Shown one piece after another: positions 2,872 through 64,000 of a stretch of DNA of 64,000 nucleotides. Under the pieces are notes generated by a model, which was given only the letters and a program-made list of their open reading frames with translations, was not told the DNA's origin and did not search any database. Each line of letters starts with the position of its first letter. The first letter of the stretch is position 1. The translations under genes were made by a program, and so were the position numbers. The stretch covers positions 124,001 to 188,000 of the forward strand of contig JAYWIR010000094.1 of NCBI GenBank assembly GCA_036172245.1, given 5' to 3'. Origin of the DNA: Raillietiella orientalis. Lineage: Eukaryota.

Positions 2872-4776
2872 GGCGGTTGAACACACAATTTCAGAATTCT
2901 TATGGTTGCTTTTATGTAATACTTAGTTGTTTAGATTTTTTGAGGGGTTTATCTAAAATTGTTAGTAAGATGAAGCTAAGTAAATAGACTAAAACGGAGA
3001 ACTGAAGTTAGGTATTTTGAGTTGGTTTCCTAGGTTATGCTGCATTTTTGTTCGCTTTTCTTTTAGCCATAGAACAGACTCTTCCCTCTTATTTTTCCTT
3101 GTCTCATTCTTGTTTTTATTTTGTTGTGCCGACATTTGGTTTTGTGTTAATGTTAATTTGGTTTCGCAAAAAGTCTGCGAAAAGCTGCACCGTTGTTTTA
3201 ACTTAAGAACTGACCTCCATGTTGCTTCACTTCTTTGAAATGGAACTCATGAAAGGAGTTGTAGATTACGTTTTTCCTCTCAAAGGAAGGAGTCTTTGTC
3301 GCAACTTCTCAAAATTATCTACTTGGAGATGAACTGGTGGTTTTCCTTCTTTCAAAGCCATCAGCATGCGTCATGAGCCGCCTCCATCTCATCAGTTATT
3401 TGAGAGCTTCTTTTGTAAGTGTTGGTTGTAGGACGGATGTTTCCTTCATTAGTATAGAAGATCTTTCTTTAAGTTTCAAGAACTGCTCCGAACAGCAGCC
3501 ACGGTGAATCCACCTTTTACCAAAGGGCTCTATTTTTCCAAAATTGCTAGTCCGTTCCCTGGAATTCCCAATTCAGTAGGGGAGTCTAGGAAAAGGATCT
3601 TAGGGATAGCACTAAAAGGCACAAAGATGAGCAATAGTACCGAAAAGTCGACAGAGCAAACGGGGATGCGATAGGGGTGGACGAGAGGTTGCAGGGGTCA
3701 CGGGATTACCGCGTTCTCAAAAGTCTGTAAACCTGCGTTGAACGCCGGGGATGTCCTTCACCTCGTCACGAAGGTTAGGTCACCTTGCAGTCCTCTCCAT
3801 GTATGCAGCTGCAAGCAGGTGTGCTCTTCGCTCTGCTCACAACTACACGGCGTAGCAAGCCTTTACGATGGCGCGAATGCAACCTATGGTTGCGACAATC
3901 GCACCTACCAAAAATCCATTTCTGCTGAGGAAGCGTCGCAGCACATCAATGGCGGTGCCTCCCTGCGGCAGGACGGCTGAAATCAGCCTTCGCCACAGTT
4001 CACGGAGGTCAACGCAGCAAAGCAAGAGGCGCAGAAAAGACTTGAACTCTCCGCACCTCAAACAGTTTGCCGGAGCAGCACCCCCGGAAACTATGCTTAG
4101 CTGCCGATTACAATGGAAACCCCAATACAAAAACAGCTACACATCTTGCAACCATTTCAAAGGGATAACGGTACTGTTTAAAGAAACGGTGGGAATCACT
4201 ATCTCTGCGGGTGCACAGTTTAATGTTCGTTCCACCGAAGCAGACCCCTCCTTCGATTCCGAGGAGCAAGGCTTCCACCAGCTCCTCTATCATCCAACCT
4301 CCGAGGAGCTTAGACACTCCTGTAATTGTTCAGGAGAACTTTCATTCCGCCGGTAGGCAACTATCGTTGCTTGCCCTGAAGGCAGACAGCGCTGCAGCGA
4401 GTGGTGTGACGGCCTGACTATTCGTCTTATTCTTGTCCCGCATTGCATCTTCCAAGGGATGACACCGGATAAGTCTAAGGCGTCGAAGATATTCCGGGTG
4501 CATTCCTTTGAAAGCGGCTCACCATGCTAAGGATTCCTGCCGCCACTCCGACTCTAGCCTGTGATGGTCAGGAAGTCCGGATGGCAATCTGCCTCTCCTT
4601 GTTACACGAGAGTGCAAGTTGTCATCGAGGAAGATGTGACCTTTCCATCTCAGCTACACCGACCATCAAGTTGACAGCGCGTACTGACGTGCACATCTCG
4701 ATGGTTGACGTGCGCTCCCTCGGGCAGCTCTATTCATCAGAGAGCAGGTGGACGTTGAAGTCTTCTGCGACGAGGT

Positions 4777-6835
4777 TTTTCACCCGGGTGAACCAAAGCT
4801 TTTTTTATTAATAGTTTTACAATACAAAAAATTTCATAATAAAGTCTTGATTTTTGAGTAGTAAAGTTTTCCTTGTTTTGCTTGTTCTCCAGTCGGAACA
4901 CATGGAACAACTGTTTTGAAGCACTTGTCCTTATTTACCCGCAGGCCGATAAGGTCCCCCACACAGGCACAGGGGCGAGAAAAACAAAAATAAAACAAAA
5001 AAAGAAAACGCCTGGGGGGAGTAATGTTCTTTAAGCGGAGAGGGGAAGGGAGGGGATTACGGTACGCCGTTAGGAGGCCTCTGCATCCTGTTTAGGATGC
5101 GAACAAGTGCTGGCAAATGCTTTCGAATTCGGCGCCAACGGCAGGCCTTCTCCAAAGAGATGGTTGCCCAGTGAATGGCATTCCGACTGGTCCGGCCTCT
5201 CCGTGACGCGGTCCACTTGGCCAGGATTCCGCGTATGCAACAAAGAACTGCTACACACCCGGAGGCTGACAAGGCGTATCGCATCAGAAGTCGTCTAAAA
5301 ATGTTCTTGGGATCGCCCACCGGAATGTTCAGGATCGACGAGAGTCGGTCCCACATTAGGCGGAAGGTGACACAATCGATGATTAAGTAGAAAAAGGTCT
5401 CCCATTTCCCGCAGTCTGCACATTTAGGATCCGCTCTCTAGGATGTCCAGTGAGACAGGCGGGCTCTGCTGAGAAGTCCCCAATGGAGCAGAAGCAACGT
5501 CGTCTCCTGCCACTGCAGGGTAAGGGTGCCGTTATCCCAATCCGCTGGGGGCCACTTCACCTCCTACGGAGGTACTTCGAGCAGCGTGCCCCAGCGTGTA
5601 AGTCCATTCAGCGGGACAGGGGGTGTACTAGCGTCCGCTAGTTCCCGAGACGTCCACGCCTTCAACTGTTTTTTCCTGCCTTTTATGAAGCAGGACACTT
5701 CCCACGATGCCTCCTGCTGGCTGTCCCGAGCTTACCTGAGGGAAAGGAACACTGAGGCAAAGGGGGTGAAAGATGTCCACAGAAGTTTCCGTGAGTTTTG
5801 GACGATATCTAGCAGTGGCTGACCAGCTTATCTGCCTCTACGGAGGCAGGAGAAGTCCTCCATGCTGGAGCCGTTGATTTTAGCCCATGCGGAAACGGAT
5901 TCCTGGAGCCAGGTAGTTCAGTCCGCAGGGATGCAGGACATCTACGGATTGTTTCTCAACAGGGCAATTAAGGTTCGCAGCTAAAACCCACAGTGGTTCA
6001 GACTACGGTCGTTGGCTACTAGGATTGAGGTGTATCCTTGGCAAACGGTTGCCCTGTGAGCGAGGAGCCTTGAAGGTGCACACCAGGGTGCGGTTCAATA
6101 CTTTGTCACAAGGGCAAGTTCTCGGAATTGGAGCTGTCGCTCCATGCGTTCCAACGTCAGGAGACCAAGTCCACCGTCCCTGCGTGAAGCGCACAAGTCT
6201 TTAAGCCGGACGAGGGGCCTCCGATTGCCCCAAAGGGCTTCTCTAATGAGGCCCCTTGTCCTTTTCCGAATTTGGGGTGGGGTTGGGACGCAAAAGCGTT
6301 AGACACCGAGGCCCGTTCCTGCAAGTAAAACTTGGCGTCCCGAAACGGGCCGATCGCCAACTCCACCTTTTTGAGACGGTCGGACCAGGATTCTGCTGCG
6401 CAGAAGTCCCCCAACGGAACGCCAAGGTACTTGATGTACCTGCCCGTGGGGTTCCCCAAGCGGATCCAGTCCGACCGTCCTGCCCGCGACGAGTCCGATG
6501 AAATGATCGACGACTTCGCCCTGTTTGCCTCGAGGCCTGTTTCACGGCGCAGCAACTCGAAGATGTCCTCGAGCGCACTCGCCGGTGTGGACCCGGGAAG
6601 CAGCAGCAGAAGATCGTCTGCATAGGCTGACACGGCAGGCGTGCTTGCACACGAGCTCGGCAGGGTTGCCAAAGTCTCCCTGTATGCTCTCAGCACCAAC
6701 TCAAAGTAGATGCTGAAGAGCAGGGGGCTGAGGCTGTCGCCCTGCCAGATGCCGCGACGAACCGGCACGCCGTACACGTGCCGGCCGCTAAAATTAATGT
6801 TAATAAACGGGAAACGCCATCACGAGCGCAGGTGC
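4777..6835 (-). mobile_element. 5'-truncated family A copy nested in the host APE
   Basis: GIWQGDSLSPLLF, AYADD, KYLG; 3' end ...CACCCGGGTGAAAA; 7-bp flanking duplication acgaggt at 4770-4776 and 6836-6842. Confidence 0.85.
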
Positions 6836-8009
6836 ACGAGGTGCGCTACTTGAAGAATGCATTTTTTGAGACAGTGGCATTTCACTTCCTCGAAGAGAGC
6901 AATTCTATCTTCGAGGTAGCGGGAGCCACTCGGCGCGTAGATGTTCGTGGTGATGAGATCGATGGACTCGGACCACTTGACAACAAGTTGGCCTACCCGT
7001 CCTTCGCAGTTGAAACGAACACTACGCACCGCTTTCGCCATTTTTCCTCTTGTGAGAAACGGGACGCCGAACGTGCGTAGGGCGCCGCACCGCCAAAGTA
7101 GCGTTCCGCCTGCGCGTTCCTCGATTTCCGGAGCCTGCTGGTCGGAGATTACGTGGATCTCATACAGGAACGCAAGGTCAAAAGGGAGCAAGGTGTTCGG
7201 TGCCAATCACCTCTTCCCCTCTTTCTGCAATCCATTCACGTTCCAACAGGCGACGGAAAGGCGACAAAAAGAATCCATTCCCCGCATTAATGCTGGACAG
7301 TTGGCTGCTTTTCTCCTGCTTTTACCGGCGAGCGGACGGTGAGCAGCACTGCTGGCTGGAGATCACGGTCGCCATTGTCCTCCCTGGTGCTGCAAGAATT
7401 CGATTGCTCGTCTCCGTGTAACGTCGCGTGACGCTCCGAGGTGAGCTCTCGCTCCTTCGCGGCCTGCGCTGCGCGGCTCAGGGACTTATCCCGTCGAACT
7501 ACGGCTTTTGCGCGGGTGATCCAACGTGCGGCGGTGATCTGAGACTCCGTTCGGGAGTCTGATTGACGCGCGAGCTCTTCACGTCTTACCTGCCGCGTCG
7601 ATATGGAATGGATCGCGATGTTACCGTGGTCACCTCCTTTTTCGTGGTCAACGGGGTATCGCTGCCGGTGAGAGCGGCTTTTGAGATATGCGCGATCAAG
7701 GCGGTGCCTTTTGCGACAGCGGAGGGAGAACTCGCGCGAGTCTCCTTCATCGGGCGACTGTTCATTGCCTTGCAGTGGCTCTCTCAAAAAAAGGTTGTGG
7801 AGCATTTTGAGGACATTTTACTTTTCTCCCTTTCTCAACAACCGTTCACACGCCGTTTGTTTCCTTGGAGGGTTCCACGATTGTCGTCAGAAACGCCTCC
7901 AGAATATCCCTCAACCAACTATGGCGCAGCTTTCGCCGCACCCTAAAGAGGCAGCAGTGGCGCACCCTCCTCGAAAGTCAGGAAATTGCTCGTCGACTGA
8001 TGAGACGAG

Positions 8010-13090: not shown

Positions 13091-14479
13091 GAGAAACTGC
13101 CGCGTTGGAGAGGATGCGGCTGGTTGCGTCGGGTTTTAAAACAACTTGCCGCCGCTTTTTTCTCCTTTTCTCGTCGGAATTCCAGCTGCCTTTTTAAGAT
13201 TTCCTAGCAAATACCTCGAAATGGACAAGTGGCAGAATGAGTCAGTTGTAGCGAAAGTACGATTCGCGTGTTCCCATTCGCTCTGTCGCACGGTGATACT
13301 AGCTGCACTGACCTCGTTCACGGGGCGGTAATTCCGCTTTCAGCTGCGAAATGAGTGAATGCACGCGCGCAGCCCTCGTGCCCCTATTTAACAGGCTTCC
13401 CTGTCGAACAATTTCCCTTTCGGGGATTTGCTGCAGATGAAGCCTCTTGAGACGCTACGTTCCTGCTTGGCATTTTCACAAACTTTCGAGCGTTTTCTCG
13501 TTTTTTCGAGGCTGCTGCTTTCCCTTCTGCGCTCTCTTTGGCGCGCCGGAGTTTAGCAGCGTCCTTCTTTTTTGCAATGTACGAGCACTGTCTGATTTGG
13601 TGCCAGGACACCTTGCAATAGCGGCACATCGGGGAAGGGCATTTTTTCCCCCGATACTCTTCTTTGCAGCATTGCTTGCACGCGTGAGCTATGCCTGCAA
13701 ACCACAGGTGAACGAACGTGTTATTGGACTGTAACGGGGCAGATAGCATGCGGCAGTTAGGAACAGTTATCCTAACTGCAGCAAATCCTGTGTGTACGGA
13801 GGGGAATTTCCTGTGGGAACTCCTTTTCCTCCACACCTCATAAACGGTGATGAAATTCGACAACGCGTCCATCAACTGTTTTTCGTTGATCTCCGGCTCT
13901 ACGTCCTAGTAAACAACGACAAAAGACTGGTCCATCGCAAAGAGAAAACTTTTTTTCCGCGGATGGACAAAGGAGTGCAGAGGAGCCGCTGCACAAAAGC
14001 AGCCTGCTTGCATCGGACTTTGACATTGCCCAATGCAGGAACACGCATGAGTTCTAACAGGTCCTCCTCTTGCAATCCCACACAGAAGAGTTCGTCCGCG
14101 AACTGCTCCTTCGCTTATTTTACAGCACTTAAATGATAGCAGAGAGCAGGTTTGTAGCCCTGAGCTACATATGCCTACATCTTCGCCTAATAGAGGAAGC
14201 GTCCTTGTAGGGCTGCAGAGGTAGCCCCTTCCGAGGAGCTTCTGGCCGTTGCATGGGACTCGCACAGGTTGTGTACATCGTTCTAGCTGCGGGAAGTTCC
14301 TAAACTACTAACTCGACTACTTCCACGTTGTGTTGTTCACAGCTCATCCGCAGAACTAGGCAGTGGGACGAAAAGGCACAACCAAACAGCGGAGCAACGG
14401 AGCGACGCGAATGCACGTCCGTCTCTCATGAAAGCAAAAGTTAGAATTCCTTACTTAGTCACGCTAGGACGCTTATTTT

Positions 14480-14634
14480 CATAAAGAGTGTTTTCGAACC
14501 AACAGTGACGTGGTCGATGCTGCGGACCATTCCCTTAGTGTTCCCGAACAAGTACCACGCACGCATGGAGGTGCTCAACTCGTTCGTTGCGTTCTCCTGC
14601 GTTCCATTCTTACCTGAGAGCAGCCGGACATTGA
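14480..14634 (-). mobile_element. Short family A APE fragment
   Basis: NVRLLSGKNGTQENATNEL...MVRSIDHV. Confidence 0.75.
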
Positions 14635-16410
14635 GCAGTTCGGTTACGCCGAGGCGTTTATTTATAACAAATCGGTCTGGGACAATGTCATCAATCGACG
14701 AAAGGACAAGTAACAAAGAGAAACTACTGGCACGCAGGTCTGGTAAACAAACCGCTTGCAACACTGAAGGAGTAAAGGGATAACAAAACAAAAATACAAG
14801 AACTGGAGGGAAGGGTAACAGGTCTTTGGTGAGGGTCCGTACACACGGGGATTAAAACGACGAGCACCTGGGATGTTTCAGAGCCTAAGGGGACGGAAGT
14901 GGGAAGAAAAAAAATAAATAATGGAGCGTAAGGTCAGGATAACCAGGATGGCCGCTGTAGAGCGTGTGTGAACCGGCGATGTATGCCCGTGAGATCCCAT
15001 CTTGACTCCTATGTCAAATGAGGCCATCTGGCGTCCGCTTCCATGTAGGAGGATGCTTTGCGAATTACCTCTTGGAGCTGTTCATTGATAGTCAGCGCCT
15101 GACGGACTGAAACTATTGCGCGTATGCAAGCGATGGTTGCAAGCCTTGCGCTTGTAGACAGTTCGCTCGGCGTGAGGAATCGTCGCAGCAAGTCTCTTGT
15201 GGTGTCCACGGGATGCGAGAGTGCTGTTTCCAGCCTCAGCCAGGGTCCTTGTATAAAACCGCACTCCAGAAGTAAATGAAGAATCGACTCCGTCGTCCAG
15301 TACCGAACGCAGTTGCATTTGCGAGTCCCCCGGAGACACGATGCCAGCGCTCGTTGCACTGAAAACCCCAGTGAACGAAGAGCGAGAGCAGCAAACTGTC
15401 AACACACTAAGGAGGAACTACAAGTTCTTCGGTGTTGACATCAAGTTGCACACCCCACTGAAGGAGTCCCTTTACAGTAGCACGAGGAGTGGCGCCATCC
15501 GCCAGCATGCTCGTCTTACAGGTGCTCAGGAGTTTCATTCTTCCTGCTATTATGCAGGAAAGCTCCCACCTCACCGGTTAACAACTGTCATTTCTTGCCC
15601 TGAGGGCAGACAGCGCTGCGGCGAGAGACAAGGCGATCAAAGTGGAAAACTTCACCTCGTCCTGCAGTACCACTTCCTGAGATCGCGGAACAAGATGGCG
15701 CAGGAGACGAAGATCTTCAGAGCGCATTCCATGGAAAGCCGCCCAAGATTCAACAGACTCCTACTGCCAAACGTACAAGTTTATTGGGCGGTAGGTGGTC
15801 CACGAGTAGGCCTTCAGAAGTGCGACCAATTGACGCGAATGATAGACGAAACCTCGCTTCCTGTATTGCTAGCTTGGCAACAGCGAGAGCAGTCCTCCGC
15901 TGCCGGCGCATCTTTACAGTAGAATGCTTGCAGGCACAAAACAGGGGGGATGTCTTGAGCTCAGTACAGTGCCAGCAGTCGGAACTGCACCTGCAGTCAG
16001 ATTCGTTCCATTGTCAGCATACCCAAATCAGCATCTCGACGTGGAGCAACCAAGTCTTTAAGGCAGATTCTGGATCTCGTCGGACCCCAGAGAGTGTTCC
16101 TGCGCAGGCGTTTAGTTCGCTGCTTTGCCGCATCAAGGGGTTCCAAAACAAAAAACAGGAAGCGGAGGAAAGGGGACGCAAAGGTGTTTCAAACAGTTGC
16201 CCGTTTCTGCAAGGTAAACTTGCCGTTAATAAACGGGCTGACGGCCAACTCTGCTTTCCGAAGGCAGTCCGACCACGCTTTGGCTGCGCCGAAAGCGCCC
16301 AACGGAACGCTAATGTACTTAAAGTACCTACCCGTGGGGATCCCCAGGCGGATCCAGTCGGACTTCCCCTCCCATGACGCACCCACAGGAACGACCACGC
16401 TCTTCCATCT
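14635..16410 (-). mobile_element. 5'-truncated family A copy (post-RT region and 3'UTR)
   Basis: KSVVVPVG...DWIRLGIPTGRYFKY; HLLLECG; end AATAAACGCCTCGGCGTAACCG. Confidence 0.85.
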
Positions 16411-17291
16411 GTTCACGCGATGTGAAGCGAGCCCAAAGCCTTTACATATCGAGATGCATGTAGTGGGCGAGTAGCCGCTCGCGTAACTCTCCTTGGAAAC
16501 GTACAAATTTCATACAAGCTGGAGATGAACCACCAGCTCGTTGCTCCCTGGTACTTGGAGAAGGAGAAATATTGCGAGCTATGTAACACGTTTGGGCATA
16601 TCAAGATGAAATGCCCTGAAGCCAGGTTCCCAATGTGCGGCGGGAAGGGCCACACCAGCGTTGTGTGCCCCAAAAGCGCCGTTCCATCGCAAGAAACCCC
16701 GAAATAACAGAGGGGGGTAAAGAGAAAAATATAATACCACGCGACCTCTAATCATCCTCAGAAGAAGTCGTGCAGCAGGAGCAGGACTCCCAAAAGGAGA
16801 CTTCTGAGCCTAATGCCGACGAGGACGGGTGGAAGACGTTAGAAAACAAAACAATAAACTCTATAGATAACACAAGAAAAAACCTGATGTTGAAGCAAGC
16901 CCTGCATGCGCACAACCCGAGAAGCCCGCCTCTATGGAGGACGGCGATCAAATAGGAGCGACCACACATTAGGCCGACTCAAATGAAGCGTCGACGACAA
17001 TGGAGGAGGCAGACCAGGTGCTCGAAACACCTTCTTCTATACCTCCTAGCGTCCAGCCTCAGCAGGTGGCGGACGACGAAACGCCGGTTTCCCAGCATTA
17101 GCAGCTCGGTTCGCCTGTCGCCGTCGGATACGCGTGGACTGTTGGAACGTCCACGGGCTGCGCGGCGACGGCAACAGACGGGATACGGGCGACACATTAC
17201 GTCAGTTCGAACTGACCCTTCTTCAGGAGATACACGTGATCAACGCGGTGGACATCCAGTATTTCGAAACGACCGCATGCGGTCGGTTGTC
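16410..17291 (+). mobile_element. Tx1-like ORF1 knuckle region and APE N-terminus
   Basis: CELCNTFGHIKMKC, CGGKGHTSVVC; CWNVHGL...LLQEIH. Confidence 0.8.
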
Positions 17292-50310: not shown

Positions 50311-53300
50311 ATCGCGACGGCGCGCGTCACCATGAACGACCGGAGGCTGATGCCTTCGCAGATCATCCTTGGTGACGTCGTTGTCTATCTCCGGTTTGCC
50401 GGGCAAACCCCCGCTTGCGGCAACTGTGGGAAGGAGGGCCACCATCCACGGAAGTGCCCAACACGCAGTTGCCGATACTGTAAGCTGCTTGGCCACTCGA
50501 TTACCAAGTGCGCCGAGCTAAAACGAAAGAGGAGGCCGAGAAACCTTCCCGCAACATCGCCGTCCGCGCCGACTCCATCCGCCCCGTCGTCGGAGAAGAA
50601 ATCCGGCGCGAACAAGGTTCTGCAGCTGACAAGCACAATTTCCGATCGCGCGGGCGTGTCTGGGAGCAATGCTCCTCAAAAGTCCACGAAAAAGGACAAA
50701 AAGCTACTCCAAGCTGCTAAAAACAAGCCCCGAGCAAAGCATTCTGGAAAAAACCTCGGGCAGACTGCAAAACCGCCGCTTCCGTCCGCTCTCGTTCTCG
50801 AGGGAAATAGCAGTGGCACGTTAGTGAAGTCCACCGGAGCTACAAAAAAGGGTTCGCGCGCCCATTTACCCGCGACAGGCAAGTTGGCCACGGCGGGCCT
50901 TACGCCAGCAAAATATGAAACTTCTCGCGCGACCCCCGAGAATCCCGCCACTCTGCCCGCACCTTCCGGTAAGGAGGTGCCGAAGGCAGACGTGGCGAAG
51001 GAGACACTGGCCTCCATCGCCGTATCCGAGACCTTGGAAAGGATGGGAAGGACCTTGGAAGCCCTCACGTCCAGCCGAGGCAAACAGGAAGGCGGCGCGG
51101 ATGACTGGACCTTCGTCGGGGGAAAGAAGGAGCGCAAACCGTGCGAACCTTTCCACTCCCCGTTCAAAAAGGTAGGCGGAGTGCAGAGGCAGCCCCAAAC
51201 GCCCAGAAAGGCCCAGGGAAAAGCCTCTGCTGCCGCCGCGCGCGCCACGGCAAACACCCGCGGCAAGAGGGGAGCTGCCGAAGCCGTGACCCCGAAAGGG
51301 GGATCGGCGACGAAGGCACCCTCTAAGAGTGCTGCACCAGCTTCGGGCTGCCAGCAAAAAAAGAGGCAGGCGAAACGCCCGCCGCGCGCGCGGAATTCGG
51401 ACTCCGAGGTGGAGTCTGACGGCAGCGCTAAGGCTCGCCAAGCCCCGGTCAAGGCCAGGGCTGCGCGCAACCCAAAACTTGCCAGGCAAGAGCCTGATTT
51501 TGGGAACGGTACCCGATGCTCCTCGGAGCCCGAGACAATAATCCTGAAGTCCACCGAGCCAGACGGGAGCGGCGCGGCAAGGACAGGAAGCGCTTGCGCT
51601 ACCTCATCCGCCGTGCTCCCGGCTGATGCCTCGCCGGACGGGGCGAGGAACGCACCTCCATGTCCGTAGCATCAATACGCGGTCTGGCTTCTTCCCTTCG
51701 CGTCCGAGTGGCCTGTTGGAACGTCAACGGGCTGCAGGACAACGAGAAGAGGCGATTGGTTGCCAACGTCTTGCGCGACTTCGATCTGGCCCTGCTGCAG
51801 GAGATTCACGCACTCTCCGAGCAGCAAGCGGCCGATTTGCAAGTTCGCGCAGGCGGGATGCTCCATTGGAGGTCAGGCTCCCAGAATACCTGCGGAGTCG
51901 CATTCCTTGTCCGGGTCAGGGTGGCGGGAGCGGTGCGGAGCGTTTGTTTCGACGAGGAAGGTCGTGTGGGCCAACTTGTTCTCAAGTGGTCCGAATCGAT
52001 CAACCTTGTCGTCACGAACGTGTACGCGCCGAGCGACTTCGCGCGTCGCACCGAGAAACTGGAGTTTTTCGATAGACTGCGCGACCGCTGGCTCAGCAAC
52101 TCCGGCCCCGACGTGGCTCACCTCGTAGCCGGGGACTTCAACGTCCACGCGCTATCGGAGGAGTCTCACCGTCGCCGGGAGAAACAGCTGGTGAACTACG
52201 TGTGCGCGTCCGTGCACAACTCGAATTTGCTGGCCGACGATCCCGGGATGCGTGCTTTGCCGGACCATGCGTTCCTCGAAGATCACCTGCATTGTCGGGT
52301 GGGTCGAAGAGGTCCCGTGCCGTCAGAGCTTTCCGACCACCACAGGCTGGAGTTGGAGTTACTCCCGCCTGGCAAGGGCCCTCCGACGCACGTCTAAAGG
52401 TTGCCGGCAGACAAGTTAAGAAATCCAGTGCCTGCGGAGCACCTCCGCCAGCATCTCCGGACCTTGGCCGTTCAAGAGCTCGTGGACTGGGACGATCTGA
52501 AAAGATCGGTGCGCGAGTTCTGCATCCGGTTCCCCTTGCGCCTGCTTCCCCGTGGCTTCGGGGAAGGCGTGGCCAACAGCAGAGTGTTTCTGCAGGTCCG
52601 CCAATTCTCCCGATGCCCGGACGTCTGGTACCTTGCGGAGTACAAGGCCAAGGCCGAGCGCCACGCGTGGCAGTCAGGAGCGGCTTGTCTGCTCGACGAC
52701 CAGGGCCTGGAGTGCTAGGGCGCGGCCGACGTTCGCCGCCTCCTAAAGCGCTACTACTCCTCGTTGTATGCTAGGAAGTCGACGGAACACAGTCTCTCGG
52801 AGCTGCTTCTGCCGGCAAATTCCCCTGCGGTCGACGAGGAGGAACGCGCCACTCTTGACTTGCCCTTCACGGCGGAAGAAGTGTCTTCCGCCATAGCGGG
52901 CCTCAAGAAGCTCAAGGCGCCAGGTGAGGATGGTCTGCCTGCGGATTTCTTCCAGTGCTGAGCGGCGAAACTCATCCCCCTGGTGCTAAGCCTTTCCTCG
53001 CTGATGCGGTATACGGGCAATGTACCGGCCTCGTTTCGCTCAGCAAGGGTGCGTCTCTTGCCGAAAGGCGGAGACATGCGCCATTTAAGCAACTGACGTC
53101 CCATCACCTTGGAGAATTCGGACGTGAAGTTGTTCTCCAGGTTCTGGTTCGCGCACCTAGGCAGGATCGCTGGATCCGTGGTAAGTCCGGAGCAGTCTTA
53201 CGTTGTTCCTGGGCGGTAAATGGAGGCGAATCTGTTCTTCGCGCACATGGCTCGAGCTGCAACGTTGCGTAGCGCACGACAGCCAGGCAACCGCATCTGC

Positions 53301-55462
53301 GGCTGCCAGGGCTAGGTGTTGCTGCATTCAGCCTGAGGAAGCGCCGGGTGCCTTGGCGGTCGCAGTTGATCTCCGCAAGGCGTTCGATTGCGTAAATCAG
53401 GATCTCCTGCTGGAGCTCCTGGAACGCCTCGGTCTCCCAGTGCACCTCGTGGCGTATTTGCACGCTTGCTGGCGCCACGCGCTCATTTCCATCTCTTTCA
53501 GCGGCTGCCACGTGTACTGCGTGCCGGTGCAGCGGGGAATCAGGCAGGGCGACACTTTAAGCCCGTTGCTCTTCAGCATCTTCTTTCAGTTGGTGCTGAG
53601 GGCGTACAGGCTGACGCTGGCCAACCTGCCGAGCCTTTGTCCACGAACGCCGTTCGTGGCGGCTCATGCTGACGACCTGCTTCTCCTCTTACCCATGACC
53701 ACCCTGGCGTCCAGTCTCGAAAATTTTTTCGAGCTGATCCGCCGGAGAGCGGGCATGAGCATAAACAGGAGCAAGAGCGTGGTCGTACCTATTGGTGCGG
53801 CGTAGGAAGGGCAGTCCGACTGGATCCGCCTGGGGATCCCGACCGCTTCGTCCACCCAATTTCTGGGCGTTCCGCTGGATAACATCAGCCCAGTGGAAGT
53901 GTGGTCGGACTGCCTTCGGAAGGGTACGAGTGCGCTGAGCCCGTTCCACCATGGCAGGTTCCTCCTGTCGAAGCGGGCCGTGATATGGAACACCTTCGTC
54001 GCCCCCCTCTTGCGCTCTTAGTTTTTTGTTTGGCCGTCCCCCTACTCGGCGAAGCTCCAGGCGCACAGCCTGTTGAGGAACGCTCTGTGGGGTCCTGCGA
54101 GTTCCAGAATCCGCCTGAAAGACTTGGCGGCTCCACGTCCGGATGCTGGCTTAGGCATCCTGACGCTGGAGAGAATCGAGCTGCAGGTGCAGCTTCGAAT
54201 GTTGGCCCTGTGCGCCAACCTTTGGTCCACTCCGTGGTGCGCTCCAGCGCGCCTGCTCCTGCGGCGTTGCACCAGCAGCGACGGACTTCTGTCGCTGCGT
54301 CCGCACACGAAGCACCCCACGACAAGTTTCCGTTACCCCTTGAAACCCCTCTACCGGCTCCTGGCAGCCCAAGAATGGATCTCCTGCCGCCCAACGAACT
54401 ATGAAGCCTGGTGGCAGGAACCGTTGCATGGCTGGGCAAAGCACCAGGATGTTACCCTTCTGGAACTCCGTTGCGTTCACCTCTTCCCGTACTGCACGGT
54501 GGATGAGGTCTGCAGCAGCCAGGGGAAGTGGACCGGCCTGGCCCTCACCCCCCTCGCCGACGCACTCTCAGCCCTCAGGGCAAGGGATCACAGCTGCGAA
54601 CCGGCGAGATGGCAGGTCGCCTGCACCATCGAAGGAACAACACGACCTATTGGCAGCTGGAGGACTTGCAAGCTGGCAGACGCCGCCACGCCTCGCCACA
54701 TCTCGAAGGGACTCCTTCGGTGGAGTGAACACTTGAGTGTGCCTCCTGAAGAACTTGTGGTCCCTCCCTCCTGTTTGAACACTCCTGTGTTTTTCCTTTC
54801 GTGGAAGCAGGACGTCATCATGCTGGTGCATTGGGGTTTTCACTCCAGCCAGCGGACGGACCGTGTTTCCGGGGGAGTTCTCTCCCCAAACTGTAAGCGG
54901 TGCGAGGAAGTATAAACGCTCCGGCACCTGCTCCTAAACTGCGGTGCCCTTCTAGGACTCTGGCGAAGGCTGGCCTCAGCCTTTCTGCACCAGGGGGACA
55001 CCGCGAGGGACTTCATGCGCCGCTTCTTCACGCCAGGCGGACTGTCTTTGTGTGCTGTCGTTGCAACCGTGTGTTGCACCCGCGCTATGGACAAGGCCCA
55101 CCGAGAGTTGAAGAAGCTGGTCATCGTTCGTCAGCCCACCGGAATAGCCAGCGCAAGCATGTCGTCGGCTGTCGAGTGGGCCCATCTGCCACAAGACGTA
55201 AGGAGAGATATCGCTATCATCCATCGCCGGTTTTCAAAGGAAGGAATGGACTCACCAAAGACCTCTGTCCCCTGTCCTCCATATTTTTCTTTTATTTTTT
55301 TATAGTAGTGTATTTGTGGTCCCCTCCCTCCCGTTCCGGACTTTCAGCATACCGACCTGCGTGTCAGGGATCCCACCACCTCCGTATATTGTTTTTCCCC
55401 TTTGTCCGGGAACTCTGCTCCCGGATGGTTTGTAATAAACGCCCCGGCGGACCCGGGTGACA
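50311..55462 (+). mobile_element. Most complete family A copy: ORF1 (5'-truncated, to 51669), ORF2 51660-~55300 with several stops
   Basis: CGNCGKEGHHPRKC/CRYCKLLGHSITKC; full APE motif set; DLRKAFD, QGDTLSP, HADD; CKRCEE. Confidence 0.93.
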
Positions 55463-55980
55463 AATAGCCGCCCTCCGAATATTCGTTCGATCTCTTGCGC
55501 TTGTTTTAAAGAGATCACGTGGATTTCCAGCAGCAGTGCAAGTTTGAAGAAATAAAGAAGGGTGGCCATGTCCCGTCTCCTGCCGGTGTCTGTCATGTTG
55601 TTTACGTTCCAAACAACGATGCGCAGACAACGTAGGAAGAAGATTCCCGGCATTAGTGCTGGGAAGATAAAGGTTTGGAGTAGCCAGCCTCTTGCGGAGC
55701 GGGCAGGATGTCCATGGGGGTTTCGTCCTTCTCAGGCACCTGGGGCACCTGTTCGGCTTACGACCCCTCCATCCCTTTCGTGTCCGCGCGTGAAAGTCTC
55801 TCGGGCGACGTGTCCCGCGAGTTTCCCACGTTCATGGCACCCTCGCTTGCGGAAGCTAAGATGACGGACGGGAGTCGATGACATACGTCGCCGCCGTCTC
55901 GCGCGCCTCGCTGTTGACAGAGTGAACAGAGGGGCTGTGGTCGCTAGCGGCGAGTTTTTTCTCGCAGCGGTCGGGAATAC
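55463..55980 (-). mobile_element. Family A ORF1 end and APE N-terminus
   Basis: TAATG junction at 55651-55655; VWNVNN...LLLEIH...GGRL. Confidence 0.85.
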
Positions 55981-57680
55981 GTTTCACTCTAACACCTGCA
56001 CGGTCGTGTTCTGCGTTGCTCTTCGAGAGTGATTCCTTTCCGTCTTCTTGTGTGTGTACTACCCGAGTGGGTCCACTGGAATGTCCACGTAGCCCGTACA
56101 GCTAAAGATGGATGTGAAGGCTACTACTGGCAATGGAGACTTTACTCCAGATGCCCGGTCCGCCTCTGATTCTTGTGTCTCGTCACCGGCGAGAAGCTTC
56201 GCCGCCGTCGTCAAGGCGGCGGCAGCCAACGGAGCACCGCCCGACGAAGCGGAGCTGCAGGCATATGCAGCCCACGGCTACAAGCCTGCGCTCTGCTATC
56301 TGGTGAGTGCTGCTATCTCCGACGGGGTCGGAGAAAATAAATGGGACGAGCTTTTGCGCGTAAGGGTCCGACAGGACGACCTCCTGTCAGTCATGCCGGT
56401 TAACGCGCTCCGACATTGGGAGGTGCACTGCAAAGAGACATACCTAGTTCAGCGCTTTCTCCGAACCTCGCTAAACATACGCTGGAAGGAAGTCGTTCCG
56501 TCGGCAATAGACCTGTCGTTCGTGTTCCAATTGTCCGCCGTCCAGATGGACACGCCCAATCGCGTACTCGTCGGTGCACTTAGTGCATTCGCCACGGTGC
56601 ACGCGCAGTGGGGAGCAGACAATTTGATCAAAAGGATTGCATCTCTCCACAGCGGACTTCTCATGGCGGATGTCACTATGGCGGATAGGAGGCAAATGCC
56701 TCTGCACATGCAGGTGGGGAATGCGATCGTCCACCTCAAATTTGCTGGTCAGCGACCGGCTTGCGGAATTTGCGGTGCAGAGCGCCACCGTCCGTATACG
56801 TGCCCTTCACGCAACTGCCGCTATTGTAAACAGCTCGGCCACTCCATCAAAGAGTGCGCCGTGCTGAAGAGAAAGCGTCAGGCAGAAAGCCGCCAACAAT
56901 CTACCCCGTCCACGCCAAAAAGATCCCCTGTTGTGCCACGAGAGAAATTGGGCGCGAAGGGCAAGGCAACTTCCAGTGGCGATCCCGCGAAAAAAGGTGG
57001 GGTTGCTTCAGGGAAGCCACCATCCCAGACAGCCGCGCAGACGGGAAAGATGCCACGTCGCCCTGGAGGCAAATCGCCCTCTTCAAAGCAGCCCAACAGT
57101 GCGGGCACGCACTCGCTGAATGCTGCTAAACCGTCCGCGTACGCTTCCGCGTCCAGAGAAACACACGGGAAACCGTGCGCGGGCACCCAGGGAGCTGCCT
57201 CTGAACGGCAGTCTCCTCCTACGGTGGCGGAGATCACGTCTTCCACGTTGAAGGCACGAGCAGCGAAGGCTGCTATAGCGCCTCGCGAGACGACGGCAAT
57301 GACCGTCGTTTCGCCCGCATCGGCTGGGGAGCAGGTGCAGTGCGTAACGGGGACGGAGCCGTCTCCCGCCGCGAGCGCGAAACGTGAGCCGGCATCTCCG
57401 GCCAAACAATTGAGGAGGGCGTCGGCCTCCCAGGAGGGCGTCCCCGATGCGGGCTGGACTCGCTTCTCCAGGACGGTTCTCCTTGCAGCTGCTACCCCGC
57501 AGCTTCGGAGAGGGTGTCGCGAACAGCAGATCCTTTTTGTATGCGCGTACCTTCTCCTGATGCCCGGACGTCAGGCGTCTGGCGGAGTACAAGGCCAGGG
57601 CCGAGAGCCAGGTTTTGCAGTCTGGTGTGGTTTGTCTTCTCGATGACGCTGGCCATGAATGCTTGGCTGCAGCCGACGTT
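55981..57680 (+). mobile_element. Family A 5'UTR and ORF1 (ATG 56108) joined at ~57470 to the APE-RT linker
   Basis: CGICGAERHRPYTC/CRYCKQLGHSIKEC; then LQLLPRSFGEGVANSR...AADV in another frame. Confidence 0.88.
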
Positions 57681-60665
57681 TGTCACTTGGATATGCCGGG
57701 GCATTTATCATTCTAATTATTTACAAAAATTAGATAATAAAGTCTTTAAAAAAATGTTTTCTGTAGGAAAACACTGGGTTCTCCCACCATGCTCGACGTG
57801 TCGGTTGCCGGTGCATAGACCGGTTAGGTCCATTTCCGAGGTGCATGGGAAGGGAAAACTAGAACAAAAACAAACAAAAAAAAAGATGTTGGCGAGGGAA
57901 ACAGTTATATGGGGAGAGAGGGGGGCAGGGAAGGAATCACTGGGCGCCTGGGTCGGTCCTCCGCATCCTGTGAAGGATGCAGTCAAGTTCGGTTTTTATT
58001 GTGAAATGTAAACGCCACCTTGTCGCCGTCTCTAAAGAGATCGTCGTCCAGTGGATGACGTCCCTGCATCTTGGGCCTCTTCTTCTGGCGTGCCACCTTT
58101 GCACAATGCCGCGCACGCAGCAGAAGACTGCTAGAGACGCAGCGGGGCGCAGGCCATCACTCAGAATGAGGCGACGTTAAATTTCCTTAGGGTCGGCTAC
58201 TGGAAGATGGAGGATTGGGGCGATTCGACACCAGAGTCCATCCAGGGCGACACATTCGAGGATGAGAAGCGGGAAGGTTTCTCTTTCTCCGCACTCGACA
58301 CAGCGGGCATCCACATTCCTCAGTCTACAGTGAGACAGGCGTGCTCTCCTTAATAGTCCTTAGTGCAGAAATAGCAACGCCGTATCCTGCCACTTCAACA
58401 AGAGTGTGCCGCAGTCCCTACACGCTGGGGGTCACTTCACCTCCTCAAGAGGTATTGCGAGCAGCTCTTCCTAGCGCGCCAGTCCGTGAGGCGGGACGCT
58501 CGGGGTGGCAGCGTCTGTGAGATCCCGAGTCGTCCACACCTTTAAAGGTTTTTTCCAGCCTCTGATGAGGCAGGACACTTCCCACGATGCCCGCTCGTTG
58601 CTGCTCCTAGTGTTATTCAGAGAGGACAGAACGGGGGCAAGGGGGCTGAAAGAAGCCCACAGAAACTTCCGGGATGTGTTGCCAATATCCTGCATCGGCT
58701 GTCGAGCGTGCGGTCCTCGTCGTAGGCAGTTGTATTCCACCTCGCTCGTGCCGTTGATCTTAGCCCACGTGAAAGCTCACTCCTGAAGCCAGGCAGTGCA
58801 GTTCACGGGGAGGCAGAAGATCCAGGTATTCTCCCTCATCAGGGCGACCATCTGGCGCAAATAAAGGCTGTAACAGCTGGAGAGGCTGCGCTGGTAGGCC
58901 ACGAGAATCGAGGACAATCCTTCGCAACCGGTCGCTCTTCTGGCGAGGAGCCGTGCCGGATCGCATCATGGCGTCATCCATAAGCTAGCCGCAAGTGCTA
59001 ACTTTCGAATTGTTGTTTGAAGTTGGATGCGCTCCAACGTGAGGAGGCCCAAGCCACCATCCCAGCGTGAAGCGCACAAGTCTTTCACTCGGACTAGCGA
59101 CCGAGCTGTGCCACAAAGGGCAGTCTTCAGGAGGGCTTCGGTCTGTCTGTGTATGATGGGAGGGGCGATGCAAACAAAAAGTAAGGGGCGAAGGAGGGGG
59201 GCCGCGAACGCATTTCACACCGCGGCCCGCTCCTGCAAGAAGAACTTGACGTTCCGGAACGGGCCGATCGCCAACTTTACCTTTGGGAGACGATGGCACC
59301 ACGCTTCTGCAACGCAGAAGTCCCCCAACAGAACGCCATGGCACTTGAAGCACCTGCCTGTGGGGATGCCCAAGCGGATCCAGTCCGGCCGTCCGGCCAA
59401 CGCCGTATTGTTTAAAAGTAGTAGTGATGTTGGAACGATGGAAAATTTCTCTCTGTTCATCTCAAGGCCCGTCCCGCGGCGCAGCAACTCAAAGAAACCT
59501 TCGAGCGCACTCGCCGGGGTGGACCCGGGGAGCAGGAGCAGAAGGTCGTCGGCTTAGGACGACACGGCAGGCGTGCCGAAACACGAGCTAAGCAGGGTTG
59601 CCAGAGTCTCCCTGTATGCGCTCGGCACCAGCTTGAAGTAGATGCTGAAGAGCAAGGGGCTCAGAATGTCACCCTGCCTTATGCCACGGCGAACCGGCAC
59701 GCCGTACACGTGCCTGCCGCTGAAAGAGATGTTTATTAGAGCGAAGCGCTAGCAGGAGCGCAGGTAAGCCCGGAAGACGGCCGGGAATCCCAAGCGTTCC
59801 AGGAGTTCCAGAAGGAGTTCCTGGTCGACGCAATCGAACGATTTACGCAGATCGACTGCGACCGCAAGGGCACCGGGCGCAGCTCTTCCATGAAGGGCGT
59901 CCCCTTCATGGTCAGAAGAGAATCCAGGATTCTCTTGAACTTTCTGGTCTTCGCTTTGTTGCAACTGCCACCATGTACTGGCGAAAAACAGGTTGGCCTC
60001 CATGCTTCGTCCGGGAACAGCGTATGTCTGCTCCGGACTCACCACGGATTCCGCCACTCGTCCCAGTCGCTCAGCCCAAAGCTTGGCAAGCAACTTCGCA
60101 TCCGCATTCACTACTGTGATAGGACGCCAGTTGCCTACGTTGCGATTGTCTCCTCCTTTCGGCAGGAGACGTATTCTAGCTGACCGGAACGATTTTGGGA
60201 CGTCCCCTTGTTCTCGGATCAGCATGCAAAGCCGATGCACCAGGGGGGCCAGCTCCGCCACGAAGCCTTGGTAGAACTCCGCGGGCAGTTCGTCTTCCCC
60301 TGGTGCTTTCCTCTTTCTGAGCTTTCGGATGGCGAAGACGATCTCCGCCATCGAGAAAGCCTTCTCGAGTTGATGTGTCTGCACCTCCTGTAGCGCGTGG
60401 GCGCCTTGCGACAGCAAGCGATGCGCTATGTTGTTCTACGCGCGTACAAGGAGGAGTAATTGTGCCGCAGTATGCGGTTCCCTTTCGCCGGAGCTGAGCA
60501 TTCCTGGCCTTGGGCGTCCAGCATGCTTTCCGACCCGGATTGCCAGGTCTGTCGCTCAGCCCCAGCTTTATACTCCACCAGGCGTCGAACGCCGAGAGTC
60601 CTAGAGTAGAGACGGGCGTGTTGGTATGCCCGGTCGTCCCTCAGTCCTTCGCCGAAACCTGGACT
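57681..60665 (-). mobile_element. Family A ORF2 (linker, RT, C-terminus) and 3'UTR
   Basis: KAPGEDE, WRPITVVN, DLRKSFD; end GATAAATGCCCCGGCATATCCAAGTGACA. Confidence 0.9.
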
Positions 60666-60667: not shown

Positions 60668-61356
60668 CGATGCGGCGCCCGCAACACTTGTGGGGTAGCG
60701 TTCTTCCTAAAGCCAGCCATTAACGCGGCCGTGAAGGGCCTGCGCTTTAGGGACGACGGACGGATCGGCAAATGGATTCTCAGATGGTCCAATTCGATCG
60801 AGCTCATCGTCACCAATGTGTACGTTCCTAGCGGTAAACAAGGATACCAGCAGCGCAACGCGTTACTGGAAACCTTGAAGCGCGAATGGCTGGTGGACGC
60901 GGACGTGCGGAAGGCGCATTTGATAGCAGGGGATTTCAACGTCCGTCTGCTCTCAGATCAGCCCGGAGCACAGGGTAACGCGATCAACGAGTTGTGCGCC
61001 GCCAAGCGCGCGCGCAACTTGTTGACAGAAATAAGCGGGATGGTCCGCAGCGTGAACCACGTCTTCCTCGACGAAGACCTGTGCACACGGGTCGGAAAAC
61101 GAGGGACGCTTGGATCGACGCTTTCGGACCATTCCCGGTTATTATTCAAGATGCGCCCGCGCGACAAGGGACCGCCATTTAGGGATTGGCGTCTGCCAGG
61201 GGACTGGACGCGCCTGTCAGGAGCGAAAGAAAATCTTCGCGAATTCCTGCGAGGCGTCACCCTCCAGAGTCTCGCAGATTGGGAACTATGTAAGGACTCG
61301 GCCCAAGAGTTCTGCGAACAGTTCCCTGTGCAACGTCTGCCCCGGGGATTCGGCAC
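60668..61356 (+). mobile_element. Family A APE fragment
   Basis: RCGARNTCGVAF, AGDFN, LSDH, ends at LPRGFG. Confidence 0.88.
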
Positions 61357-64000
61357 TGCCACCCGGGTACGCCCGGGGCGTTTATTTAGAAAAAACTCTA
61401 CAATCGCGGTACCAGGCCCCGCTCACGGCTTTATGCACGGGACCTACCGGGACGCCGGGACTCCGTCCGGCGTGACACTCCCCGGCAGCGAAAGGGGATG
61501 GGGAAAAACAAAAATAAGAACAAAAACGCAAACAAAAAAAATGTGGTTGGGGGGCAGGGAAGGGATCACTGTTCGCTGAGAGGAGGGCCCATCCGTTGAA
61601 GGAAGCCCTCGAGTTCCATCCGTATATTCCCCAGTTGGGGCCATCCAGCAGCTCTCCGCAAGAAGCGTTGGGCATATGAGATGACATCCCTCGCGTGTTG
61701 ACCCACTTCTTCCTTGTTGGTGTCGCTCTATGCCGCCACGATGCCTCGGACGCAGCACAAGTCTGCAAGGGCTGCGGCTGGGTGCAGGGCGTCCTTCACG
61801 AAGAGGGTCCGAAGAACGTCTCTAAAGGAACTGCCCGTTGGGAGACCGAGGATCGTCCCAAACCGTTCCCAAAGGGGACGAAGGGCAGCACAGTCCACAA
61901 TAAGGTGGGAGGGCGATTCCCGCTCTCCGCACCTGACACACGTAGGATCCACAACTCCTCTTGTCCAGTGAGAGCGGCGTGCGTTGCAGGGTAAACCCCA
62001 ATGCAACAACAGCAACGTCGACTCTTTCCACTTAAGGGGCAGGATCCTGGATTCCGGAAGAAGCGAGGGCCACTTCAGCACATCCATAGGGATGGTCAGC
62101 AGCTCGCCCCATCTTCTTAGTCCTCGCGGCTGGACGCTCGGGGTCGTGGCGTCGGCCAGTTCTCCTGTTGTCCAGCCGCTAATCAAATTCTCGCGTCCCA
62201 GGATGCAGCAGGAGACTTGTCACCTTGGCGTCAGGCTGCTGTGAAGTGCCCTATTTAGGAAGGACAGCGCCGTAGCTAGGCAGGTCGTCTCTGCCCACGT
62301 GCATCTTGCTGGACTCTCCAGGAGATTCCGCAGCGTGCAGCGGACGTAGGGGCTGCATCGGAGACGATTCCACGTCTCGTGGCTCCTCTGGTTAACCGCT
62401 GCCCACGTTCCAATATTCTCCTCCAGCCAGGCGGGGGAGTTGGAGGGGCAGCAAACCATCCAGCTGTTCTTCTTGGCCAATGTTGCCATGCGCTTGAGCA
62501 GTAGGCCGCACCTTCGCATCTTCCGGCCACGGCTCAGAAGAAAAGACGCGATTCCATCGCACCGGGACACACGGCTGGCCAGGAGGTGGGCCGGAGTGCA
62601 CCAAAGGGTGCTCCACATCTTCGCTGCGATGGCAAGGGTTAGCTATCGCAGCTGCTTCTCCACGCGCTCCAGCGTCAGGAGGCCAAGACCGCGGTCCCGA
62701 CGCGGAGCGCACAAGTTCTTCAGAGGGACTCGGGGCCTCCCCTCGCCCCAAAGGGCGATACGGAAGAGGTCCTTTGTCCTCTTTTTCGATTCAACGGTGG
62801 GGGGGCAAACAAAAAGCAAGGAACGGAGAATGGTAGCCGCAAAGGCGTTCCAAACCGCGACCCGTTCCGGCAAGTGAAACTTGCCTTCCAGGAACGGGCC
62901 GATCGCCGTCTCGACTTTTTGGAGGCAGCTAAACCACGCTTCCGCAGGGAAGTAGTCCCCCAACGGCACACCAAGGTACTTGAAGCACCTCGCCGTGGGG
63001 ATCCCCAGACGGACCCAGTCCTGCTGCCCTGCCCACTCCGCACCTATAGGCACAACCGACGACTTCGCCCTGTTAACCTGCAGTCCGGTCCCGCGGCTGA
63101 GCAGATCGAAGAAGTCTCCGACCGCCTTCGCCGGGGTGGACATTGGCAACAAGACCAGAAGATCGTCGGCGTACGCTGCTACGGCGGGCGTGCCGGGGCA
63201 CGAGCTCGGCAAGGGGGCCAAAGTCACCCTGTACGCTCTCAGCACCAACTCAATGTAGGTGCTAAAGAGCAGGGGGCTGAGGCTATCGCCCTGCCTTATG
63301 CCCCACCGCACCGGCACGCCATACACCTTCTGTCCACTGAAACAGACGGTAATCATCGTATTCCGCCAGCAAGAGCGCACGTAGGAAATCAGGGAGGGTG
63401 GGAAGCCCATGCGACCCAGGAGATCCAAGAGGAGTTCCTGGTCTACACAGTCGAACGCCTTGTGGAAATCAACTGAGAGCGCTAGGGCCCCCTTCCCCGC
63501 CCGGGGTTTCCTTCATAGCCCGGGTTGCGGCCTCAACGTGGGGTTGCCGACTGTTCATATCCCTTTCTTTTATCATCTCAGCAGGTACACCCATGTGCCT
63601 GCGAAGAAGAGGTTGGCATCCATCCTTCGCCCGGGAACAGCATAAGTCTGCTCCGGGCTAATTACGGATTCTGCCACCTGCCCCAGACGCGAAACCCATA
63701 GTCCTGCTCTCAACTTGGCGTCTGTATTCACGATCGTGATTGGACGCCAGTTCTTCAAATTCCTGAGGTCTCCCCCTTTCGTGAGGAGCCTCACTCTGGG
63801 TGACCGAAACTAGGCGGGAACATCGCCTTCGTCTCGGATCAGCCTGATCAACTTAAGCAGCAGGGATGCCAGCTCTACCGCGAAGCTCTTAAAGACCTCC
63901 GCGGGAAAGCCGTCTTCCCCTGGAGCTTTACGCCTCTTGAGCCTTTTGATACCGGCGAGAATTTCGACGGTGGTAAAAGGCTCGTCGAGGCTTTCCATCT
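61357..64000 (-). mobile_element. Family A RT, C-terminus and 3'UTR (runs off the window)
   Basis: QGDSLSP, YADD, KYLG, CVRCGERESPSHLIVDC; hairpin end. Confidence 0.92.

Follow-up and report, generated by a model that had tools for sequence, protein, structure and literature searches.

INTRODUCTION

Target-specific long interspersed elements (LINEs) are known for ribosomal DNA, small nuclear RNA genes, microsatellites and other transposons. R1 and R2 use one site each, in one orientation, and have a sequence-specific endonuclease. Cnl1 of Cryptococcus targets its own copies, and the algal LINE Zepp carries a poly(A) tail. Here, we describe a stretch of 64,000 nucleotides (nt) from Raillietiella orientalis (assembly GCA_036172245.1, contig JAYWIR010000094.1, positions 124,001 to 188,000 of the forward strand), called the window in the following, in which a single LINE group, family A, makes up 57% of the DNA. 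In the window, the flanks of the family-A 3' termini are non-randomly concentrated in one region of other family-A copies, the DNA that codes for the apurinic/apyrimidinic endonuclease (APE) domain of open reading frame 2 (ORF2) and for the linker between APE and the reverse transcriptase (RT).

The published passages on Zepp describe an L1-type LINE of the green algae Chlorella, Coccomyxa and Chlamydomonas that inserts into its own existing copies and forms nested arrays, in which 3' ends predominate as a result of 5' truncation (PMC8226300, PMC3446292). For the crocodilian element Tx1-Mar, whose target is Mariner-N4_AMi, the corresponding passages report two target regions, one in opposite and one in the same orientation, 'without recognizable similarity', and they list other Tx1 families with long terminal repeat (LTR) retrotransposons or Harbinger elements as targets (PMC4494074). 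The same passages regard an element as target specific when more than 20% of its flanks fall in one sequence type. The non-LTR element Cnl1 is described as piling up in subtelomeric arrays of its own copies (bioRxiv 10.1101/2021.08.11.455996).

RESULTS

Architecture and 3' termini of family A

Positions within family A are given on the longest copy, window positions 50311-55462, which serves as coordinate ruler and is named refA. On this ruler ORF2 starts at ~1290, Pfam places the APE at ~1407-2030, and the RT begins at ~2750. RefA is cut off inside ORF1, and other copies extend at least 570-650 nt further upstream. Pfam matches and translation along refA give an ORF1 with CCHC-type knuckles, followed by an ORF2 with the order APE, linker and RT. 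The ORF2 domains are well matched (Exo_endo_phos with E=1.5e-16, RVT_1 with E=1.9e-11 to 7.8e-21). The ORF1 matches to zf-CCHC (E=0.006 and 0.025) stay under the curated cut-off; the pattern CX2CX4HX4C is visible in the translations, and CCHC knuckles are not exclusive to Tx1. In a comparison that covers only clades with solved structures, the family-A RT is nearest to human L1 ORF2p with E=2.4e-31, versus 6.9e-10 for R2 proteins. By its predicted domains, family A is an APE-type LINE of the L1 superfamily.

All 12 named 3' termini share the end AATAAAYGCCCCGG(G)CGY-ACCCGGGTGAY, which is followed by at most 1-4 A and no long A tail. A profile built from these 12 termini recovers precisely the same 12 at E<=4.2e-5, with the next match at E=0.47; a stricter fuzzy pattern recovers 8 of them. 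The 3' end contains AATAAA and a short GC stem-loop, for which a folding energy of -6.2 to -12.8 kcal/mol is calculated, not significantly better than for shuffled sequences (z 0.05 to -1.6). At its 5' end family A has a copy depth of ~2 in the window, and towards the 3' end the depth increases to 12-14.

Position of the flanks

The flanks were mapped with nhmmer in three rounds in which the refA columns were kept, resulting in 34 mapped pieces, with protein alignments as cross-check. Flanks in sense orientation start at refA 1714 (terminus 29776), 1810 (4777), 1825 (30763) and 1828 (14635). Antisense flanks start at refA 1552 (17292), 1555 (55462), 2258 (24152), 2252 (61357), ~2425 (57681) and ~2460 (31386). 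The flank of terminus 18436, window positions 18361-18436, is antisense APE sequence as well and corresponds to refA ~1556-1645 (blastp E=1.1e-5, 39% identity over 28 amino acids, aa). It encodes ...CGVSFLLKSAVTNAVRTIQF..., which aligns with APE residues of refA, and its sequence takes up directly where the flank of 17292 ends. With this assignment, 11 of the 12 flanks lie within refA 1552-2460, 7 in the APE and 4 in the APE-RT linker, and the sole exception is 50310, whose flank lies in ORF1 (refA position 1). The flanks define at least seven distinct sites in both orientations. One 0.75-kb target piece (29777-31384) was struck three times and the piece 17002-18436 twice.

These data can be compared with the initial annotation of the window, which was made from the letters of the sequence. 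It had identified 12 family-A 3' termini, and the same set is returned by the shared end and by the profile. The peptide motifs by which it had labelled the junctions, used as site names below, agree with the refA positions in the nhmmer map and in the protein alignments. Its count of 10 of 12 termini next to early ORF2 has to be raised to 11, while the concentration itself is borne out. Of the two exceptions that it had named, 50310 does lie in ORF1, and 18436 is not exceptional.

For statistical evaluation we used an interval chosen beforehand from the domain borders (start of ORF2 to RT), refA 1290-2700. It takes up 23% of the DNA of family A and covers 13% of the window. The probability to find at least 11 of 12 flanks in this interval is 1e-6 relative to family-A DNA and 3e-9 relative to the whole window. 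The narrower interval 1552-2460 was drawn after seeing the data, and its smaller P values are therefore not relied on. Three pairs of same-orientation junctions are at most 6 nt apart, for which simulation gives P=0.009.

A window in which more than half of the DNA belongs to family A could in principle accumulate such junctions by chance nesting in an island of transposable elements, with segmental duplication or 3' transduction then multiplying a few ancestral junctions. The distribution of the flanks argues against the first part of this explanation. If only distinct sites are counted, 7 of 8 still fall in refA 1290-2700 (P=2e-4), and the RT and C-terminal part, refA 2701-5152, received none of the 12 flanks even though it represents 69% of family-A DNA (P=9e-7). 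The second part depends on how the junctions are related to each other.

Independent insertions into related targets

Three events retain both halves of their target. X1 (4778-6833, minus strand, refA 3146-5150) is a sense insertion with the 7-bp target site duplication (TSD) ACCTCGT. The upstream half of its target Y1 is found at 6836-7608 (minus strand, refA 1039-1816; nhmmer map, check of both halves) and the downstream half at 4542-4776 (minus strand, refA 1810-2052; nhmmer map, protein alignment). X4 (29906-30762, plus strand, refA 4415-5150) is a sense insertion with the 16-bp TSD ATTTCAACCTGCGCCT. Its target, Y(18/20), has a left part at 29777-29903 (plus strand, refA 1714-1840) and a right part at 30764-31384 (plus strand, refA 1825-2460) that is beta-like according to nhmmer map, protein alignment and identities. 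X5 (17292-18360, minus strand, refA 4082-5152) sits flush and antisense at 'GGRL' between refA 1552 and 1556 of an unrelated target. The halves of this target are contiguous, without a clear TSD; the left one (17002-17291, plus strand) reaches to refA 1552 and has ORF1-like sequence upstream from ~16460, and the right one (18361-18436, plus strand) is the APE sequence described above, which doubles as the flank of the next terminus at 18437. Because both target halves are retained, these events are integrations into DNA and not template-switch chimeras. The two TSDs, at 4777 and 30763, confirm the two insertions that had been annotated as products of target-primed reverse transcription (TPRT), and X5 adds a third event with both halves.

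The inserted elements belong to three deep lineages that have a common 3' end and are only ~50% alike in the C-terminal region, as seen in identity matrices computed from the profile alignment. Lineage alpha consists of X6 and X5, with X2 and the alpha-like X4; lineage beta of X7, X3, X8, X10 and X12; and lineage gamma of X9, X1 and X11. Three sites were used twice, and here the relatedness of the inserts can be compared with that of the targets.

At the antisense site 'GGRL', X5 is accompanied by X6 (50311-55461, plus strand), the refA copy itself, which is 5'-truncated in ORF1, has a frameshifted ORF2 and ends at 55461 (translation, Pfam, motif). The terminus of X6 is adjoined in antisense by the target fragment F25 (55463-55834, minus strand, refA 1190-1555; nhmmer E=2e-80, protein alignment). 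X5 and X6 are 88% alike, measured over refA 4200-4900, and their flanks are 53% alike. The antisense site 'LPxGFG' was struck by X7 (21173-24151, plus strand, refA 2199-5152, terminus 24151) and by X8 (61358-63998, minus strand, refA 2535-5152, terminus 61358), whose 5' part lies beyond the window edge. The target of X7 is Y7 (24152-26752, minus strand), a copy of a lineage named delta that comprises ORF1, the APE and the linker as far as refA 2258 and extends ~650 nt beyond refA position 1. The target of X8 is Y8 (60668-61354, plus strand, beta-like, refA 1560-2252), which on its other side meets the 5' end of X9. X7 and X8 are 74-79% alike, whereas Y7 and Y8 are only 62-66% alike; Y7 groups with F14 (19774-21168, plus strand, refA 1279-2669, delta) at 84-87% and Y8 with beta copies at 71-76%. 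At the sense site 'GDFN', the junctions of X4 and X2 are 3 nt apart and the elements are 61% alike. X2 (14636-16418, minus strand, alpha-like, refA 3449-5145) has a degenerate terminus at 14636, which adjoins the target fragment Y2 (14508-14634, minus strand, refA 1828-1960; nhmmer E=1.5e-24) in sense.

Twice-used sites with related elements in unrelated targets point to independent events. Copying of junctions could account for some composite blocks that do align across junctions, such as 21515-24211 with 63992-61298, which match to ~60 nt past the terminus. For the junctions between inserted elements and targets, however, divergence is unequal on the two sides, the flanks at both twice-struck antisense sites being of different lineages and the inserts close relatives. 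The 5' truncation points differ as well, with X5 starting at refA 4082 and X6 at refA 1, and the sense pair at 30763 and 14635 is formed by elements that are themselves far apart. Junction duplication and 3' transduction were ruled out on the basis of these unequal lineage identities, and chance nesting combined with such copying is very unlikely. The initial annotation had named descent from a few duplicated events as an outcome that would speak against its proposal; we find that flank and insert identities differ at the twice-struck sites. Judged from these comparisons of aligned copies, the family-A events are true, independent insertions of the TPRT type.

The remaining termini follow the same pattern. 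X3 (26753-29775, plus strand, beta, refA 2152-5152, terminus 29775) adjoins the left part of Y(18/20) in sense at 'YAPSG', and X10 (31387-32365, minus strand, refA 4174-5146, terminus 31387) adjoins the right part of the same copy in antisense at 'YYSSLY'. X9 (57682-60663, minus strand, gamma, refA 2240-5152, terminus 57682) adjoins the alpha-like target fragment F27 (57473-57681, plus strand, refA 2216 to ~2425) in antisense at 'AADV'. X12 (18437-19862, minus strand, beta-like, refA 3736-5150) ends at 18437 next to the right half of the X5 target. X11 (48472-50309, plus strand, gamma-like, refA 3341-5149) adjoins ORF1 of X6 and has the single flank outside APE and linker. The termini of X3, X7, X8, X9 and X12 were placed by the profile together with the nhmmer map.

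Chimeric joins between repeats, introduced during assembly, would imitate nested junctions. The region is repeat-dense, and the junctions are those of the assembly. Still, no two long copies are more than 86% identical, and the joins lie exactly at the 3' terminus in 12 of 12 cases, so that misassembly is unlikely; two joins also carry TSDs and a third belongs to a flush insertion. An assembly artefact has only the slimmest probability among the explanations that we considered.

The antisense pieces could also have arisen without being targets, if elements inserted in tandem at the 3' end of an earlier element and twin priming inverted their 5' part. Two neighbourhoods are suggestive of this, as Y7 ends at refA 2258 and the next element X3 starts at 2152, and Y8 ends at 2252 and the next element X9 starts at 2240. 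The lineages do not agree with it. Where Y7 and X3 overlap, over 106 nt, they are only 63% identical; each has a closer relative elsewhere, F14 for Y7 (76-87%) and X8 for X3 (87%), which rules out a single RNA as their common origin. The second pair is mixed as well, Y8 being beta-like and X9 a member of gamma. In addition, X5 lies between contiguous target halves, and the sense junctions with TSDs are left unaccounted for. Tandem 3'-end insertion with twin priming was ruled out on lineage identities and contiguous target halves, and we regard it as highly improbable.

Further observations on the nested array

The 5' ends of X3 (26753), X7 (21173) and X9 (60663) bunch at refA 2152, 2199 and 2240, beside the hot spot at 2252-2258. 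The 5' end of X9 meets Y8 at refA 1560, beside the hot spot at 1552-1556. These ends may mark additional insertions into this region, viewed from their opposite end, or else a preferred point of 5' truncation. One possible reading of X3 and X9 that would fit the pattern is that each is what lies 3' of an antisense hit in its own linker.

F14 (19774-21168, plus strand) and the part of Y7 at 24152-25718 (minus strand) are 84-87% identical, belong to one lineage and are inverted around X7, an arrangement that no simple insertion history fits. A minus-strand ORF1 at 13393-14252 aligns to the ORF1 at 56093-57646, over residues 31-309 of the latter. The ORF1 at 13393-14252 and the upstream half of Y1 (6836-7608) are probably one long copy that was split by B1, a copy of a second LINE family described below. 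Similar to X3 and X9, Y1, which is this long minus-strand copy, has its 5' end next to the target fragment Y2 near refA 1960. The sequence 5' of X11 (47972-48703) was compared with the ORF1 at 56093-57646 as a candidate for the missing ORF1 part of X6, and no similarity was found.

Other contents of the window and related sequences

The window contains a second LINE family related to family A, family B, with two nearly full-length copies, B1 from 7315 to ~12900 and B2 from 41577 to ~47700. The host of B1 is a family-A copy, entered in ORF1, and that of B2 is an unrelated retroelement of low GC content. A search of the family-B APE against PDB gave no match. An alanine- and proline-rich repeat at 48096-48426, just 5' of the start of X11, resembles the low-complexity part of the family-B ORF1 (42470-42758).

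LINE clusters in the window are GC-richer than their surroundings. The stretch from ~34000 to 41575 has a GC content of 43% and holds several copies or fragments of the other retroelement, whose RT is matched by Pfam RVT_1 with E=1.6e-6. An upstream ORF has the C2H2-like motif CRKC...HQNCSSSF...HLRWH, recognised by eye; a layout with such a motif 5' of the RT may resemble that of the mainly animal R2 group. The RT region of this retroelement is the insertion site of B2, and the motif at 41503-41574 is repeated at 37188-37259 and 40034-40108.

Outside the window, a scan of metagenomes with the terminus motif returned 17 loci, about the number expected by chance in a rough estimate, and 0 of 17 match the family-A profile at E<=1e-3. 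Among 18 protein matches the only close one is P0001, an RT-bearing protein of 619 aa from a 2.9-kb metagenome contig with 67% identity; the others have at most 33%. A protein search for longer relatives found none. With only one close protein relative, family A appears poorly represented in the searched collections.

DISCUSSION

The reading that we favour, and consider fairly probable, is that the window represents an old nested array of a LINE family that prefers copies of itself and of its siblings as targets. Members of a group active at the time would have chosen their TPRT sites mostly in the ~0.9 kb of resident copies that encode the APE and the APE-RT linker. The lineages involved, of which there are at least three (alpha, beta and gamma, all deeply diverged), would have entered their own and sibling copies in either orientation, using a few hot spots, several of them more than once to the exact nucleotide. 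Repeated rounds would then have led to the nested array, in which short 5' target pieces with ORF1, APE or linker alternate with 5'-truncated 3' parts. The preference may be encoded by the element itself, with the endonuclease or the ribonucleoprotein recognising the sites; a molecular determinant was not found. That the family-B copies did not enter the hot region (n=2) is weak evidence that the preference is family A's own. The targeting of self and siblings proposed in the initial annotation thus keeps its basis in the non-random placement and the independence of the events in the window. The idea of a single specific target does not hold, with at least seven sites that share no motif.

Several results weigh against a preference of this kind. 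All data come from one 64-kb window. Every copy is degenerate, the longest ORF2 piece being 475 aa. In 8 of 11 events the other target half is missing from the place expected after a simple insertion. The array is rearranged, and its full nesting order could not be reconstructed. The bunching of 5' ends at refA 2152, 2199 and 2240 is without explanation. Inspection by eye of the at least seven sites for a common motif gave no more than an A or AA at the start, perhaps a part of the element's own tail, and a CG that about half of the flanks have among their first 5 nt. Hairpins or palindromes do not distinguish the 45 nt past the nick, where the mean folding energy is -4.87 as compared to -4.94 for the background (P=0.54). 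Similarity between the last 32 nt of the element and the target was found for 29776 (p=0.005) and at most marginally for 61357 (p=0.06), with p of at least 0.155 for the other 10. The low P for the sum of all junctions (0.02) comes from 29776 alone, where the 'YAPSG'-coding target at 29776-29790, AACGCCCCGAGCGG, nearly equals the start of the element's 3' motif, AACGCCCCGGGCG. Conservation of the sites relative to their surroundings is not elevated overall (P=0.26), with two sense sites in the 96th-98th percentile, 'LPxGFG' in the 11th and 'AADV' in the 4th. Finally, up to five different sites are used within one lineage, a poor fit to simple sequence-specific cleavage.

Since no motif, structure or homology accounts for the sites, the bias could be real without being a property of the element itself. 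In resident copies, the 5' third of ORF2 may simply have been more accessible, for example because it was poor in nucleosomes or because an internal antisense promoter kept it transcribed. Whatever machinery nicks and primes would then have inserted there, and a weak preference for A-rich nicks would produce the hot spots. The use of both orientations and of at least seven sites is what accessibility would give. The start of B2 is of interest here. Its first 316 nt (41577-41892) are antisense to refA 1021-1342 (nhmmer E=2.8e-53). The homologous stretch of B1 (7315-7608) is 78% identical to that of B2, and here the antisense family-A sequence runs on upstream into the host copy Y1. The alignment suggests that the start of B2 is a 5' transduction or a captured 5' untranslated region, with antisense transcription starting near refA 1342, beside the hot region. 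The antisense start rests, however, on one transduction-like structure, and both family-B insertions, which are from the same superfamily, went elsewhere (n=2). Reuse within lineages also speaks against openness. Alpha elements used 1552/1555 twice and 1825/1828 twice, and beta elements used 2252/2258 twice; such nucleotide-exact reuse by the same lineage looks more like recognition. We therefore consider accessibility as the cause of the bias to be unlikely.

A preference for self and sibling copies can be extended to an inherited, element-encoded homing to the endonuclease and linker DNA of kin, shared by at least three ancient lineages, with 'GGRL' and 'GDFN' as sites preferred by alpha and 'LPxGFG' as the site preferred by beta. 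Homing of this kind would combine a safe haven, because host genes are never hit, with interference, because with each insertion a resident copy, perhaps a competitor, has its ORF2 split, and would amount to warfare within the family. We regard this extended proposal as doubtful. Its second element had been put forward in the initial annotation as a system that disrupts the endonuclease of competitors, for which we find no support: 4 of 11 hits lie in the linker, and no intact copy is left in the window.

If the preference is true, family A would be a LINE group for which a defined coding region of its own relatives is the target and the family itself the safe haven. It would also offer a natural system for regional specificity of an APE-type element with several sites, both orientations and no obvious motif, the same puzzle that Kojima left open for Tx1-Mar. 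Beyond that, it would bear on how LINE-only arrays are built, some of which act as centromeres in algae, and on possible interference between transposon lineages. Should the pattern be local to this locus, the window would be only an unusually well-resolved graveyard of nested LINEs.

Comparison with described systems

Similar to what the Zepp passages describe, family A nests in its existing copies, the array is rich in 3' ends, as reflected in the copy depth, and the clusters are GC-richer. In contrast to Zepp, for which these passages name no preferred region, the family-A hits concentrate in APE and linker DNA in both orientations. The family-A termini also differ from Zepp in having no long A tail. 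With Tx1-Mar, as far as it is described in the passages on it, family A shares the use of several unrelated sites in both orientations within one transposon. Membership in the Tx1 clade, to which the initial annotation alluded, is at most a lead, the likeness seen for family A being one to L1 ORF2p. The target is of a different kind. In Tx1-Mar, as in Tx1L of Xenopus with its target Tx1D, another class of transposable element is entered, whereas family A enters the endonuclease- and linker-coding DNA of its own family and siblings. By the 20% threshold for flanks within a single sequence type, as given in PMC4494074, family A in this window is target specific, with 11 of 12 flanks in family-A APE and linker DNA.

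The conserved multicopy target and the reuse of sites to the nucleotide resemble R1 and R2, for which a conserved multicopy gene is the safe haven. Unlike R1 and R2, family A uses at least seven sites in both orientations, without a motif. Family A also resembles Cnl1 in its accumulation in arrays of its own copies and differs from it in that its array has a preferred internal region, a position of which the Cnl1 passages make no mention.

The closest parallels are Zepp for self-nesting and crocodilian Tx1-Mar for several sites in both orientations. A limited search of the open-access literature gave no report of the combination seen in family A, and a search of this extent cannot show absence. 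What seems to be new is this combination, in which several old lineages have a defined coding region of their own ORF2 as target and enter it in both orientations.

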